The notes under the pieces are model-generated. The model was not told where the DNA came from. It saw only the letters and a program-made list of their open reading frames with translations, and did no database searches. From Dictyostelium discoideum (Eukaryota), in contig CM000151.3 of NCBI GenBank assembly GCA_000004695.1, positions 3,072,001-3,136,000 of the forward strand: a stretch of 64,000 bases of DNA. Reading direction: 5' to 3'. A program made the translations under genes and the position numbers. This document shows, piece after piece, positions 10,040 to 25,850 of this stretch (positions are counted from its first letter, which is position 1; every line of letters begins with the position of its first letter).

Positions 10040-10275
10040 TACCAATATAAATTTAACCACATACACACACTCTCTCTCAAACACACTACACACACACACT
10101 CTCTGTCTGTCTCTCTCAAACACACTCACACTTAATTTATATTCGCCATCTTAACTCACTATCACAATTATCATATTTTTATTTTCTTTTTTTTTTATAA
10201 AAAATAATATCAGTGGTGTCTTTGTGTGAATGAGTGTGAATGAGAGAGAGAGAGAGTGTGTGTGTGTTGTTTAAC
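10040..10275. repeat. Imperfect inverted repeat of CA/CT-rich (left arm) and GA/GT-rich (right arm) simple sequence, flanking an ~80-nt AT-rich spacer, inside the 4-kb intergenic region 8329..12341
   Basis: Left arm: ...cacacacactctctctcaaacacactacacacacacactctctgtctgtctctctcaaacacactcacac. Right arm: gtgtgaatgagtgtgaatgagagagagagagagtgtgtgtgtgttg. The right arm is approximately the reverse complement of the left. Confidence 0.7.
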
Positions 10276-10543
10276 TATCATTATTTAGTAGTATTTATAC
10301 CATCTTTTTTAAATAATTTTTAATTAAATCAAAAACCAAAAAAAAAAAAAACCAAAAAAATAAAAAATAAAAAATAAAAAATCAAATTTAAACAATTATA
10401 AATACTAAAAAATAAACCTGAAAAGGAATTATAAAACAGTCGGCTATAAATTTCAAATAGTAACTACCTTTACAGAGTATAAATAATTAAATTATAAAAT
10501 TTATTTATTTTTTATATATTTCATATATTTTATAAATTTATTC

Positions 10544-12341: not shown

Positions 12342-14507
<2,166 letters not shown>

Positions 14508-14764: not shown

Positions 14765-16337
14765 CTAATCTTGTTTACTTGAATAATATTTAGTTTTTGA
14801 ATAGTCAACCTTATTCTTTAACAATACACCTTTTAATTGTTGTGCAATATTTTCATCACCTTTTCTTACATTAAAATCTTGAGATTGATCAAAATATTGA
14901 ACTGCTTTAAATTTAGGTAATTTGATAAATGGTGATACATTTTTAGTAAAATTTGAAAATTGTGCTTCTTTAATATTTAATTGTGAAATTTCATTTAAAT
15001 CATCATTATTATTATTATCATCAGTTGGTATTGTAATTTGTTTTTTTGAATGATTTTCATTAATTTCTAAATCATTTTTAACACCAATTTGTCTTAACCA
15101 TTTTGATTCAGATATTGATTGAGTATTTACAAAAGAAGCAATGAAACCACCAGGATTTAATAATGGTATTGCCAATTGTAATAAATCTCTATAACAATCT
15201 TTACTTGTAAATATACCAAAACCATTACCTTTTGTACGAGGTGGTGGATCCAAAACGATTACATCAAATCTTGTGGATTTAGATTTTAAATAATCCAATT
15301 GTGTGAAAACATCTTTTTGAGAGAATTTATGATAATTTGTATCTAAACCATTCAATTTAAAATTTCTATCTGCAAATTTAAAGTTTTTAATTGACTCATC
15401 AATATTATAAGTTTGAATTTTATGACCATTGACACAAGGTGCAATTGAAAATGAACAAGTATGTGCAAATAAATTTAGAATTGAACCACCATTTCTACCT
15501 TTGAAAAGGTTTGATATAATTTGTCTATTATCTCTATGTTCTAAATAAAATCCTGTTGATTTTAAATCCAATAAATCTATATAAGATTTCATACCATTCT
15601 CTTCAATTATCAATGTTGTTTGATTGGCTTCATCTAATTCATAACCTTTTCCTAAATAAAGTTTAGACATTTGTTGATCTTTTGTACTAATTTTCCAATA
15701 TATTCCTTTTTTACCAGTTTCATTTAATAAATATTCTGATATATATCTAACATGAGGATGCCAATGATCTGAAAGTGTCTAATAAATTTGTATTAATATA
15801 TGTATATAAAATAAATTAAAAAAAAAAAAAATAGGAAATAATAATAATAATTACAGTAATTTGTAAATAATCAGCAAAAACATCAACTGTTAATCCTGAT
15901 AAACCATCTGAACCATCATTAACTAATCTATATGCTGACTTTGGTCCAATATCAATAATTTTATCATTTGAAAGTTTTTCTCTAAGTTCCATCGCTTTTT
16001 TTAATGAATTTCTATTTTTGTTTTAAAAAAAAAAAAAAAAAAAAAAAAATTAGTATAAGATATAATTGTGAAAATAATATTATTGATGATTTTTAACATA
16101 CTTAATATAATCTCTTGAAAATATTTCATTACAATAGTTCATGATTCTAATAGGGGGTTCAAAGTTTGTATCAATTAAAGCTATACCTTTGGCTGAACCA
16201 TCTTTTAATGTGAAATCAAAATCACAAAATCCATTACTTTTTCTAAAAACTTTTATAAATGATTTACCAAGAGAATATGGTTTGGAATTTAAACTAGTTT
16301 GCAATGATCCCAATAAATTTTTCATTGACCCTGCCAT
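14765..16337 (-). CDS. Class-I SAM-dependent RNA methyltransferase of the bacterial RlmI/YccW type (N-terminal PUA-like domain plus Rossmann MTase). Three exons: 16102..16337, 15855..16011, 14765..15778.
   Basis: The PUA-like N-terminus reads ...KDGSAKGIALIDTNFEPPIRIMNYC... Across exons 2-3, ...RLVNDGSDGLSGLTVDVFADYLQIT | TLSDHW... corresponds to the RlmI 'EGDGLPGLVVDRYGD-LVVQ' block. SAM-MTase motifs follow: LDLKSTGFYLEHRDNRQ (compare RlmI ...GYF-DQR-NR), LNLFAHTCSFSI (motif I-like) and FDVIVLDPPP (motif IV DPPxF-type). Donors GTATGT and GTAATT and acceptors ATAG|A and TTAG|A give consistent phases (2+1, 0+0). Confidence 0.75.
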
Positions 16338-20229: not shown

Positions 20230-21214
20230 AAAGAAAAAAAAATTTTTTATAATGAAATTTATATTAATATAGATTGATCATATTTATATATGTTTAGATG
20301 GAAGTCATTTACAACCTTTTCAATATCAACAACAAACTTATAATCAACAATCATATTTGAGACAACAACAACAAGCACCACAACAAATTTCTTATGGATT
20401 TAATCAACCAAATTCACCAACATCATCATCATCAACACCATCATCATCAACGGCAATGGGAAATTCATTCCAAAATCAAAGACAAATCAATTTACAACAA
20501 CAACAACAACAAGAACAATTTTTACAAGAACAAGTTTTTTATCAACAACAATTATTACAACAACAATCACAAATTAAAGAACAACAACGACAAAAAGAAC
20601 AAAAACAAAAAACAAATATTTTAAATATATATAAAGAGGGAAAACAAAAAATTATGATGTCTTTTTATAATCTTTATAGAAATTGTATGTTTTTAGGAAT
20701 TATTATTTATTTTCTATTATTATTTCATCGTTTATATATATTAACATTTTATTTAAAGATCCAACGGAGCCTCCACATTTTTCACCCTCACCAATTTGGT
20801 TAATGGGAAGGTGTTATACCTCAAAAGATAATAATAGTAATAATAATAGTAATAATAATCAAGTACCACAGACCCAACCAACACAACTTCAACAATCTAT
20901 AGGTATTTTTCAAAATAACAATAGTAATAGTAATAATAATAATAATCATAATAATAATCATAATAATAACAACAACAATTTAACTACAGATCTTATATAT
21001 AGACCAGCTATAGAATCAGGATTTTTATCAGATGTAGCTTCAATGATATGGTTTAGTTATAGGAAAGATTTCCCACCAATAGAAAATACAAATATTACTA
21101 CAGATATTGGTTGGGGTTGTATGTTAAGAACTGGTCAAATGATATTAGCTAGAGCATTAATTAAACATCTTTATAAAGAAAATGGTATGATTATTTGTTG
21201 TTTTATTTTATAAT

Positions 21215-21272
<58 letters not shown>

Positions 21273-22824
21273 TTAAACTTTATTAACCAATTAATTATTT
21301 TTATTTATTTTTTTTTTTTTTAAAAAAAAAAAAAGATATGGTACCAGAAATAGAAAGAAAGAAACCACATTCAAATTATAGCCAAGTGTTGGCATGGTTT
21401 AGTGATTATCCTTCAAAGGAGCATGTATATGGTATACATCAAATTGTAAATAAAAAACAAGCAATGGAAAAGAATAATAGAAAACAACAAATTTTAAGAG
21501 AACAAGTGATTTCATTAAATCGAGGAGGAGGAGGAAGTTCTAAAGGAAAAAAGAAAAAAGAAAAAGAAGAAGAGATAAATGATAATGTAGAGGAATGGTT
21601 AGCTCCAACTAGAATTTCAAATATTTTAAGACAATTAATTAAATTTCAACATTTGGAAGATTTAGAAATGTACGTTCCAACTGATGGTGTCATATATAAA
21701 GATTATATAAATAATTTATGTAATAATAGTAATACACATAATCATTATCAAATTATTCAACAACAATTACAACATTTAAGAGAACAACAAAATATTCAAC
21801 AAAATAATAATAAAAATAATAATAACAACAACCCAACAACCACAACAACTACAACAACCACAGCAACAAGTAGTAATAATAACAATAATCAATCACCACC
21901 ATCTAGAGTACCAAATGGATATAATAATCAAGTATTTGATGATGAATCATTATTTGACTATAACACAGCTATTAGTTCAATACCACCAAAGTGGAAATCA
22001 TTGATTATTATGATACCTTTGAAATTGGGTGCAGATAAATTAAACTCAACCTATATTGAAAAATTAAAATTATTATTAAAATTACCACAAAGTTTAGGTT
22101 TTATTGGTGGTAAACCAAAACAATCATTTTATTTTATTGGTTTTCAAGATGATCAAGTCATTTATTTAGATCCTCATTTTGTCCAAGAAAGTGTTAATCC
22201 AAATTCATTCGATTATTCAAATGTAAGTTTTATAAATAATAATAATAATAATTCATTCGATTATTCAAATCTAAGTTTTATTAATATATATTTATATATA
22301 TATTATAAATAATAATTAAATAGACATATAGTGGATGTATACCGCAAAAAATGCCATTTACACAATTAGATCCATCTTTATCAATTGGATTTTATTGTAG
22401 AGATCAAGCAAGTTTTGAAGATCTTTGTGATAGATTATCTGTAATTAATAATTGTGAATTTCCAATCATTTCAGTTTGTCAAAAGTTACCAGATTATCAA
22501 ATCGAATGTGAATTGGTTGATGATTATGCAGAGAGTGAAACAACTGAAATGCTTGCAATCACTATTGCAAATGGTGGAAATAATCATTCTTGTATTCCTG
22601 AAAATATTGTTGTTGATGATGAAGAATTTATAGTTCATCATCATATTCCCTATAATCCAAATAATAATCAAAATAATAATCAAAATAATAATAATAACAA
22701 CAACAAAAACAACAACAACAACACTAACCAACAACAAACTCCAAACTATCCACCAAAATTAAATACTTATCAACCTGATTTTTCTAGTGATGGTGAAATC
22801 GATGATTTTACAATGGTTGGCTAA
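20131..22824 (+). CDS. atg4: Autophagy cysteine protease Atg4 (C54 peptidase). Five exons: 20131..20167, 20298..20684, 20759..21184, 21336..22222, 22324..22824.
   Basis: The catalytic Cys is in ...DIGWGCMLRTGQMILARAL and the catalytic Asp-Pro-His in ...VIYLDPHFVQ. Flanking blocks read SFYNLYRN-Y-PTEPPHFSPSPIWLMGRCYTS, YSQVLAWFSDYPSKEHVYGIHQIV, GFIGGKPKQSFYFIGFQDDQ, LDPSLSIGFYCRDQASFEDLCDRL. All are colinear with ATG4B. Splice phases are consistent (CAG G|GTAAGT...TTTAG|AT; ...AATT|GTATGT...AAAG|AT; AAT G|GTATGA...AAAG|AT; AAT|GTAAGT...ATAG|ACA). Exon 2 carries a Gln-rich N-terminal extension. Confidence 0.85.
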
Positions 22825-23015: not shown

Positions 23016-23284
23016 TTAAACTTTTGTTATGAAAACTTCCTCTGGTAAACGAATTTGAACTTTATCACCAGGTTTTAAATAAATTGGACCTTTACAAGAA
23101 CGACCATTTTCAAAATGAAGAACATTATTGTTTTGGAGATCTGATACAGATCTAATAGTAAGATCAATTTGTGTTGGTCCTTTAAAATCAATTACATTAC
23201 CATTATATGTTCTAAAATGGAATTCAGTATCTATTTAATTGGAAAAAACAAATGAATATAATTAGTTTTTATTTTTTTATTTAA

Positions 23285-23376
<92 letters not shown>

Positions 23377-23837
23377 ACAATACCTTCACCGAATAAAGAT
23401 AAATATGGTGAATAACCATCTAATTGTGAAATATTTGTACAAACAAAATCTTCATCATCTTCTTCATCACCTTCACTATCAATTCTTCTAAAAACAAAAG
23501 CTTTACCATCTTTGATAGTTTCAACGAAATTATAAGTACTTCTTGAGAGATCAACTAATTCTATATTCTCTGCACTTCTAAATTTAATATTACTTTTTGA
23601 ACCATCAATAACATTCTTCATATCGGTAATGATGAAACCACCTCTCATTGCAACCTTTTGATGTACAACTTTCTCAATTTGGAATAATTTGGACTTATGT
23701 TCAATCCACATACCTTTCTTTAATTCACTTGCTTCAATCTCTTGAAATCTTTTTGCATATTGGCATGTTTCAATAGTTGATTGTTGTCTATTTATTAAAC
23801 GTGTAATACTTGTTGATGCTTTTAAAAATTTATTCAT
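23016..23837 (-). CDS. Bacterial-type translation elongation factor P (EF-P) homologue with a presequence-like N-terminus. Two exons: 23384..23837, 23016..23230. The intron is mostly (ATT)n.
   Basis: ASELKKGMWIEHKSKLFQIEKVVHQKVAMRGGFIITDMKNVIDGSKSNIKFRSAENIELVDL...TYNFVETIKDGKAFVFRR aligns residue-for-residue with E. coli EF-P domain I-II ([43 protein letters not shown]...). The C-terminal exon (...KGPTQIDLTIRSVS...KGPIYLKPGDKVQIRLPEEVFITKV*) matches EF-P domain III (...[30 protein letters not shown]). The N-terminal 35 aa (MNKFLKASTSITRLINRQQSTIETCQYAKRF) are basic and hydroxylated, like a mitochondrial targeting peptide. Confidence 0.75.
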
Positions 23838-24405: not shown

Positions 24406-25331
24406 ATGGTAAATAATAATAATAAAAATAATAAAATTAATGACAGAGAAAATGAAGAAAATGAAAAAAATAAAAAAAAGGATAAAATATATGAAAATAA
24501 AATAGGAATTAATGAAAATAATAATGAAAATAATAATTACCAAAATGAAAATTTTATTTATACAAGCGGAGATAGTAATGATACACAAGAGGGTGATATT
24601 TCTGAAATACAAGAAGAATCTACAAATGAAAATAATAAAAAATTAAAAAAAAGAAAAATAAAAAAAACCAAAAGTCTTTATTTTTATAAATGTGTTACAG
24701 GGCCCGATAAATTATTTTTTATAGTTACTCAAATTTTTATATTAGTTCCATCATTATTTTTTGAAATCAAATTGTATGTTTAATTTTTTTTTTTTTTTAA
24801 ATTATTTTAATTATAACATATATTAACAATTTATTTATTTTCTTTATTAATTTTATTAAATTAAATAAAATTAAATTAAATAAAAAAAAAAGGGTACCAA
24901 TAAGTTTAGAAATTTCAAAAAAATTAGAAATTTCAAATTATATCATTACTTTAACATTATTGGTTTTTATATTTTATAATTTATATAAATGCGCATTTAC
25001 AAATCCAGGTATAATTACAAGAAATAATATTGAAGAAAGTAAAAAAGATAAAATAAAATTAACAAAATTACAAGCAACTAAAAAAGCTTTAAAGAAATTT
25101 ATAACATCAGGTATGGATGAAATTGCAAATGATGATCCAATTTCATCATCATCTGATTTTAGTGATAGCGATGATGATGATCAAGATGAACAAGGTGGTA
25201 GTAGTAGTGCTCGAAATAGTTTTGAAAATAGTGGTGATTTCATCGTAGAAATGGAACAACCCACAAATAGTAACAACAACAACAGTAATAATAATAATAA
25301 TAATAATAAAAATAGAAATAGAAATAATAAC

Positions 25332-25363
<32 letters not shown>

Positions 25364-25850
25364 TCAATCAAAATATAAAGAAATTCAAATTGGTGATAGT
25401 GATTTTAAATATAAATGTAAATTTTGTATTACATGTGGATTATATAGAGAACCAAGATCTTTTCATTGCTCAACTTGTAATAATTGTGTAGAGAATTTTG
25501 ATCATCATTGTGTTTGGATTGGAAATTGTATTGGTCGTAGAAATTATAGAGAATTTTTTTATTTTATAACAACAACTTTAATTTATGCACTATATCTTTT
25601 ATCAATGTCAATTGTATTTTTAAATCAAATTGTAAATACAACTGAATCACCTGCAAATAAAATTAATAATAATAATATTAATAGTAATAGTAGCAATCAC
25701 AATAGTAGTAATGATTTAAATGAAAAGTTTGAAAAATCAATAAATAATATTTTATATGCTTTAAGAACTACAAGTGGAGGTTTATGGTAAGTCGAAAAAT
25801 CTAATTTAAAGATAATCTCAAATCAATGTGATTAATCACCCACACTGTGC

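Follow-up and report, generated by a model that had tools for sequence, protein, structure and literature searches.

A Dictyostelium discoideum gene for a cysteine-less COG1092 methyltransferase, a candidate RNA N7-guanine enzyme previously read as RlmI

The COG1092 family has been described as bacterial and archaeal, with "certain plants" added for its cysteine-bearing type, and its characterised members that join a PUA-like domain to an EEHEE RNA-recognition domain and a methyltransferase domain all act on 23S rRNA. The family holds enzymes that make 5-methylcytosine (m5C) as well as enzymes that make 7-methylguanosine (m7G), and its cysteine-free Firmicute group corresponds to RlmQ (PMC10798245). 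RlmI, the m5C1962 enzyme, is reported to modify free 23S rRNA but not the assembled 50S subunit, and its catalytic cysteine sits in an SCS motif (PMC2836557). By the established mechanism, methylation of a pyrimidine at C5 needs the attack of a thiolate on C6; the replacement of that cysteine by asparagine, with a co-varying change of histidine to phenylalanine, is the top signature separating RlmI (m5C) from RlmQ (m7G), an enzyme that was misannotated as RlmI until 2024 (PMC10870370). Here we describe DDB_G0273547, a gene on the minus strand of a 64,000-nucleotide stretch of Dictyostelium discoideum DNA (GenBank assembly GCA_000004695.1, contig CM000151.3, positions 3,072,001 to 3,136,000; hereafter the window). 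A first-pass annotation had taken its product for an RlmI-type m5C methyltransferase, probably organellar. We find a bacterial-type COG1092 protein that carries the asparagine and the phenylalanine of the cysteine-less enzymes, and that may well methylate guanine.

DDB_G0273547 is almost certainly a member of COG1092. All ten proteins of its clade match PF10672 (Methyltrans_SAM), and in the D. discoideum protein the match covers residues 184-357 (window 15101..15622, minus strand; E=6.4e-21, 75.3 bits, cutoff 27). The AlphaFold2 model (predicted local distance difference test score [pLDDT] 87, predicted template modelling score 0.85) begins with a helix (residues 2-17) and strands (residues 36-67), displays the architecture PUA-like domain, EEHEE domain, beta-hairpin and Rossmann methyltransferase domain, and, when superposed, matches every solved COG1092 enzyme across all three domains, with 369 of 380 residues of SMU.776 and 363 of 395 residues of RlmI aligned. 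The family (RlmI/YccW, COG1092/PF10672), the domain order and the bacterial ancestry given in the first-pass annotation are right; the best matches are not to NSUN-type cytosolic methyltransferases, and the family call therefore stands. Of the two Pfam domains that had been expected, only Methyltrans_SAM was found: PUA_3 (PF17785) gave no match at E<=10, and the PUA-like domain is degenerate. Within that domain, G36 is the same in all 53 homologues compared and R64 in nearly all. The protein also bears eukaryote-specific additions, namely a Lys-rich C-terminal tail and a low-complexity insert (residues 378-411; window 14939..15040, minus strand) that splits the C-terminal part of the methyltransferase domain, differs in length between species and is predicted to be disordered (pLDDT <50).

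The catalytic residues distinguish this protein from RlmI. We aligned it by MAFFT and by hmmalign with characterised enzymes, taking RlmI and RlmKL from the Escherichia coli MG1655 genome, and RlmQ (3vse), SMU.776, PH1915, TTHA1280 and RlmO (TTHA1493) from Protein Data Bank (PDB) alignments. The catalytic C340 of RlmI (FSCSG) corresponds to Asn349 (codon AAT, window 15125..15127, minus strand), and D375-H376 of the RlmI DHP motif to Asp432-Phe433 (codons GAT TTT, window 14873..14878, minus strand), so that H376 is replaced by F433. Motif VI and the C-terminal motif read (F/C/A/S)SCS and DHP in m5C-type proteins and in 108 of the 109 nearest bacterial matches, FSNN and DF in RlmK (m7G2069), CTNA and DF in RlmQ (m7G2574), and F-x-N-(T/P) and DF in the dictyostelid proteins. 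Asn349 is invariant among the dictyostelid orthologues, and D432/F433 are kept in nine of the ten clade members, the exception (P0010) having an aberrant C-terminus. Five cysteines are present in the D. discoideum protein, none of them conserved, and no cysteine is conserved anywhere in the clade. Since a thiolate is needed for C5 methylation, the sequence makes it very unlikely that DDB_G0273547 is an m5C or 5-methyluridine enzyme by the known route.

The motifs for S-adenosylmethionine (SAM) binding and catalysis are intact, with motif II D258, motif III D287/F289 and motif IV D308-P309-P310 invariant or nearly so. Motif IV (D308-P-P-P311) lies at window 15239..15250 on the minus strand, and its D308, P309 and P310 are invariant in 53/53 aligned homologues; D258 aligns with D568, the motif II aspartate of RlmK, whose mutation (D568A) abolishes m7G2069. 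Across dictyostelids of all sampled groups, N256-I-D258-x-S260, D287, D303, D308-P-P, F347, N349 and D432-F433 vary little or not at all. The conservation of D258, D287 and D308-P-P on the SAM side argues for an active enzyme. It also speaks against the possibility that the protein is a catalytically inert, methyltransferase-derived ribosome assembly factor, a scaffold or chaperone of pre-rRNA, which we regard as improbable even though there are precedents: deactivated modification enzymes (MRM and RPUSD4 factors) are kept on the trypanosome large-subunit precursor of the mitoribosome (pre-mtLSU) (PMC7957421), and a homologous fold, mt-LAF24, was found there as a stably bound factor. An inert protein would also fit the replacement of the motif I glycines in DDB_G0273547 (HTCSFS rather than YTGGF), but motif I of SMU.776 (YTAAFS) is likewise glycine-poor, yet that enzyme crystallises with S-adenosylhomocysteine (3ldf).

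The same residues bear on the original proposal, an RlmI orthologue making m5C at the C1962-equivalent of the mitochondrial large-subunit (LSU) rRNA. Such an enzyme would have an invariant asparagine for its catalytic cysteine, a phenylalanine for the partner histidine and no conserved cysteine as an alternative nucleophile, and its scores fall far below the cutoffs of the RlmI equivalog models PRK15128 / NF053718 (119 bits versus 712, and 89.6 versus 575). The m5C assignment was thus not sustained, and we consider it very improbable indeed, although the best single-sequence matches are RlmI models and structures, the 108 of 109 nearest bacterial matches in a word-indexed search are RlmI-like proteins of the Cys/His type, and residues on the PUA/EEHEE side (DGLPG in most dictyostelids, R64) are nearer to RlmI than to RlmQ. 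A profile built on the eukaryotic clade gives SMU.776 201 bits, RlmQ 184 and RlmI 176. Overall similarity does not discriminate RlmI from the m7G enzymes, and it is the catalytic residues and the tree that carry the placement.

An exhaustive hidden Markov model search with the dictyostelid profile against 1.84 billion representatives ranked first a graded series of relatives, almost all of the Asn/Phe type ("AFVNTH...DF"), that the word-indexed search had missed. A neighbor-joining tree was computed from 288 shared columns with capped distances and 300 bootstraps, both signature motifs having been taken out beforehand so that the result would not be circular. The dictyostelids group together with 99% support, and in 300/300 bootstraps Cys-type proteins are absent from the 15 or more sequences closest to the clade. 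Tree and exhaustive search thus agree in putting the clade among cysteine-less proteins, a further point against an RlmI orthologue. We also considered a recently mutated RlmI and rejected it, because the Asn/Phe pair is common to all dictyostelid groups and to their nearest non-dictyostelid relatives.

Those relatives include bacterial metagenome proteins and, by name, proteins of Balamuthia mandrillaris, Pelagophyceae sp. CCMP2097 and Ectocarpus fasciculatus, as well as two RefSeq models of the locust Schistocerca gregaria labelled by NCBI "putative ribosomal RNA large subunit methyltransferase YwbD" (YwbD being RlmQ). A second word-indexed protein search, with the eukaryote-clade profile, was dominated by the abundant RlmI-type sequences and returned no further named eukaryotes. 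The locust models, P0125 (XP_049850733.1) and P0127 (XP_049852062.1, with Thr instead of Asn at the catalytic position), are among the closest relatives outside Amoebozoa. Although the locust genome is very large, the contigs that carry them are small (248 kb and 78 kb), and the sequences may stem from lateral transfer, from a gut protist or another contaminant, or from a gene that truly belongs to the insect. Two metagenomic proteins, P0019 (550 aa) and P0278 (561 aa), carry a cysteine-less COG1092 methyltransferase ("AVTNH") fused to a pseudouridine synthase domain (PF00849), and related proteins of 520-620 aa read "CVTNH...DCP"; judging from their domains, this set may comprise bifunctional rRNA modification enzymes. 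The nearest PUA-less bacterial relative of the Asn/Phe type, P0129 (317 aa; groundwater metagenome contigs L002/L003), adjoins a Tex-like transcription accessory gene called as two open reading frames (ORFs) (Tex_N plus central region; YqgF/HHH/S1).

Taken as a whole, the best explanation is in our view a cysteine-less, Asn/Phe-class COG1092 methyltransferase, likely directed at guanine N7 in LSU rRNA and most plausibly mitochondrial; we hold this combined reading to be about evenly balanced between right and wrong. In our working model, DDB_G0273547 would bind SAM and methylate a nitrogen of a base ring, guanine N7 being the likeliest, as RlmK (m7G2069) and RlmQ (m7G2574) do. Its substrate would be an LSU rRNA before or during subunit assembly and, more tentatively, the mitochondrial one. 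For the chemistry by itself, the active-site residues incline us slightly towards m7G; for mitochondrial LSU rRNA as the target, the sequence leaves us just on the doubtful side of the question. In the D. discoideum subgroup the first 38 residues are basic, lack acidic residues and are predicted to form a helix, and in D. discoideum they would be compatible with a targeting signal that does not extend the protein. C1962, G2069 and G2574 are so widely conserved that their presence in the mitochondrial rnl gene would not discriminate between the hypotheses. The gene identifier is absent from the searchable article text of the literature, including that of the mitochondrial proteome papers on Dictyostelium (PMC9118663) and Acanthamoeba, and a literature search found no functional description of DDB_G0273547.

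Several observations weigh against this combined reading. The equation of the Asn/Phe pair with m7G draws on only two cysteine-less members of known chemistry, and motif I is atypical, as described above. The cluster-2 residues of RlmQ (Met, Gly and Trp, where RlmI has Lys, Pro and Arg) are here Ser205 (K-S-TG), Ser117 and Arg64; these positions (Met before TG, Gly in DGxGG, Trp in the PUA domain) were located by our own alignment and not from a published figure, and position 117, Ser in D. discoideum, is Pro in most other dictyostelids. The order of the cysteine-less subgroups (RlmQ-like, RlmK-like, PUA-less) has less than 5% support in the tree. A dictyostelid-only profile scores RlmI at 142.5 and SMU.776 at 138.6 bits, and the single-sequence search puts RlmI slightly ahead (100 versus 84 bits). 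As to location, the alignment with the bacterial PUA domain starts at about residue 1 of the protein, which has no N-terminal extension relative to bacterial homologues, and the N-termini of other dictyostelids have acidic residues by positions 2-16. Finally, we know of no m7G in any mitochondrial LSU rRNA.

Some of these points would fit an active cysteine-less COG1092 methyltransferase that works outside mitochondria or on another substrate or atom (cytosolic or nucleolar rRNA, tRNA, or a nitrogen other than guanine N7). Such an enzyme, which we think unlikely but well worth keeping in mind, would need no presequence-like extension and would be at ease with the early acidic residues of several orthologues, with the differing cluster-2 residues on the substrate side, with the Lys-rich tail and low-complexity insert as eukaryotic additions, and with the patchy distribution of the eukaryotic relatives. 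It sits less well with the restriction of the characterised PUA-EEHEE-methyltransferase proteins to 23S rRNA and with the basic, helical, acid-free start of the D. discoideum protein. Nor does it sit well with mt-LAF24, the only eukaryotic relative of known location, which is bound to an assembly intermediate of the mitoribosomal large subunit.

The gene model is secure. As proposed in the first-pass annotation, DDB_G0273547 has three exons and runs from 16337 to 14765 on the minus strand, within AT-rich Dictyostelium nuclear DNA (about 20% GC); its coding sequence of 1407 nt starts with the ATG at 16337, stops with a TAG ending at 14765 and yields a 468-aa product with 100% identity over 100% of the length to annotated D. 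discoideum AX4 DDB_G0273547. AX4 has a second copy of the gene, a duplicate on chromosome 2. The first exon (16102..16337) comprises codons 1-78 plus 2 nt, encodes the N-terminal helix and the degenerate PUA-like domain, and ends at the donor AA|GTATGT (16102/16101). Intron 1 (16012..16101) is a phase 2 GT..AG intron of 90 nt with 11% GC. It is followed by exon 2 (15855..16011), the start of the EEHEE domain, including NDGSDGLSGLTVDVFADYLQIT, and by intron 2 (15779..15854), a phase 0 GT..AG intron of 76 nt with 8% GC, whose acceptor at 15780-15779 is the only one that preserves the reading frame. Exon 3 (14765..15778) encodes the remaining EEHEE domain, the beta-hairpin, the Rossmann methyltransferase domain with its low-complexity insert, the C-terminal strands, the Lys-rich tail and the TAG. 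Both exon junctions fall within sequence conserved in orthologues and within regions of the structural model with pLDDT >90. A second D. discoideum annotation from another assembly (P0002, 448 aa) is without 20 residues, "PIRIMNYCNEIFSRDYIK", at the exon 1/2 junction (window 16102..16160); as orthologues keep these residues, a splice site was probably mispredicted in that annotation.

Orthologues (37-86% identity) are present in D. citrinum, D. dimigraforme, D. firmibasis, D. purpureum, Heterostelium, Cavenderia, Tieghemostelium and Polysphondylium violaceum, and intron 1 has the identical position and phase in D. firmibasis and Heterostelium. The spread of orthologues across dictyostelids and this common intron show that the dictyostelid ancestor already had the gene and that neither contamination nor late acquisition accounts for it; DDB_G0273547, a gene for a bacterial-type COG1092 RNA methyltransferase, has long resided in the nuclear genome. 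The Heterostelium album protein model P0008 (GL290993.1, L005 about 10205..10320) contains a 17-residue insert, "RMIFIKHHYHHIIFIFR", that comes from a wrong, smaller intron; in the DNA itself, the position and phase of D. discoideum intron 1 are those of a clean GT..AG intron (AG|GTATTT...CTTTAG|A).

The first-pass annotation had noted an EF-P gene about 7 kb away, and an EF-P-like gene is indeed found 6.7 kb from the methyltransferase start codon, at 23016..23837 on the minus strand, with two exons (23837..23384 and 23230..23016) encoding 222 aa (EFP_N, E=1e-15). Its KOW domain follows about 34 residues that are rich in Arg, Ser and Thr and have the look of a presequence. Of the EF-P domains, the Pfam scan recognised the N-terminal KOW-like one (EFP_N) but neither the OB nor the C-terminal one. 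Where bacterial EF-P has the modified loop "KPGKG", the protein reads "KVAMRGG", so that the lysine usually modified may be an arginine or absent. The adjacency is kept in D. firmibasis (about 6.4 kb), whereas in Heterostelium no EF-P gene lies within 10 kb of the methyltransferase and only a histone-fold neighbour is retained; moreover, unrelated genes (an ATG4-type peptidase, an acidic protein) stand between the two in D. discoideum. We therefore rejected the adjacency as functional evidence, contrary to the first-pass annotation: it is local synteny, with no bearing on the inference of function.

Two of the neighbouring genes, that for the ATG4-type cysteine protease, split over several exons (20683..22824, plus strand; Peptidase_C54, E=4e-23), and one for a DHHC palmitoyltransferase (24960..25790, plus strand; E=1e-27), are unrelated to translation. 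The adjacent ORF at 13374..14507 on the plus strand is Gln/Asn-rich, and its (AAT)n tract (14100..14365) is so long that it encodes roughly 90 Asn in a row. It is probably the counterpart of the histone-fold (CBFD_NFYB_HMF) gene retained beside the methyltransferase in Heterostelium; the 116 N-terminal residues scanned gave no Pfam match.

The assignment to the cysteine-less branch corrects the "RlmI m5C" label of DDB_G0273547, an error of function by homology, in its chemistry. The RlmI label on the m7G-type branch of COG1092 is a systematic misannotation. Cysteine-less Asn/Phe COG1092 proteins in JGI/IMG metagenomes (P0128, P0139, P0155, P0226/P0341, P0347), an RlmQ-like Bacillota protein among those so labelled, bear the automatic name "23S rRNA (cytosine1962-C5)-methyltransferase", a wrong label that S. 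aureus RlmQ also bore until 2024. The intron-bearing clade across Dictyostelia, with its Balamuthia and stramenopile relatives, shows that the cysteine-less COG1092 branch persists in eukaryotes too. DDB_G0273547 itself is an uncharacterised, fairly ordinary eukaryotic member of a known family, and its public annotation ([quoted passage not shown]) is already at domain level; if it were merely an orphan RNA methyltransferase, our result would be routine annotation. Should mitochondrial LSU rRNA prove to be its target, mitoribosome biogenesis would gain a new enzyme and a new base modification, in an organism well suited to genetic work and with a link to the unexplained trypanosome factor mt-LAF24. 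One may go further and imagine that DDB_G0273547 and its cysteine-less eukaryotic relatives (dictyostelids, Balamuthia, pelagophyte, brown-algal and, distantly, mt-LAF24) are unrecognised mitochondrial LSU rRNA N7-guanine methyltransferases, placing m7G near the peptidyl-transferase centre (at the equivalent of G2574 or G2069) and retained patchily from the bacterial ancestor of mitochondria. We offer this idea as speculation and think it rather unlikely in its full extent; to our knowledge, m7G near the peptidyl-transferase centre is unreported in any mitoribosome.

How, then, does DDB_G0273547 compare with the known enzymes? From RlmI/YccW (E. coli, PDB 3c0k; m5C1962) it differs in the catalytic cysteine (FSCSG changed to SFVNTQ), in the DHP histidine (changed to DF) and in a deletion of the RlmQ type where RlmI has "RSDVAVRKK". 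With RlmK, the C-terminal domain of E. coli RlmKL (PDB 3v97; m7G2069), it shares the lack of the cysteine, the Asn (FSNN) and DF, the essential motif II aspartate (D568, here D258) and the TGLFLDHR motif. RlmK, however, is an EEHEE-methyltransferase protein of gamma- and beta-proteobacteria without a PUA domain and usually fused to RlmL, whereas the Dictyostelium protein has a PUA-like domain and is without RlmL/THUMP. The Trypanosoma brucei mt-LAF24 (PDB 6yxx chain E4) shares the fold at only 12-15% identity.

The remaining comparison is with RlmQ/YwbD, the 23S rRNA m7G2574 methyltransferase (Staphylococcus aureus SAUSA300_0981, PDB 3vse; Bacillus subtilis YwbD; Streptococcus mutans SMU.776, PDB 2b78/3ldf). 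N349 and F433 of the Dictyostelium protein reproduce the cluster-1 signature of RlmQ, Asn for the catalytic Cys with its partner Phe, and "TGLFLDQR" is common to the clade and RlmQ. In the cluster-3 segment, RlmQ has EKVRFK rather than the DRSDVAVRKK of RlmI; the 3-residue deletion also occurs in dictyostelids, and the segment reads "YWKAKFK" in several orthologues (RlmQ, "YEKVRFK") but "YWKISTK" in D. discoideum itself. There are differences as well: identity to RlmQ is 27-29%, a helix takes the place of the first ~25 PUA-domain residues, and the Dictyostelium protein has a disordered insert of ~35 residues (378-411), a Lys-rich tail and a nuclear gene with introns. Because the cluster-2 signature residues differ, we do not file DDB_G0273547 as an RlmQ orthologue; strict orthology, and hence the RlmQ target site, is not supported by the sequence, and the target nucleotide may differ. 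In its predicted structure, the protein most resembles the cysteine-less RlmQ/SMU.776 enzymes.

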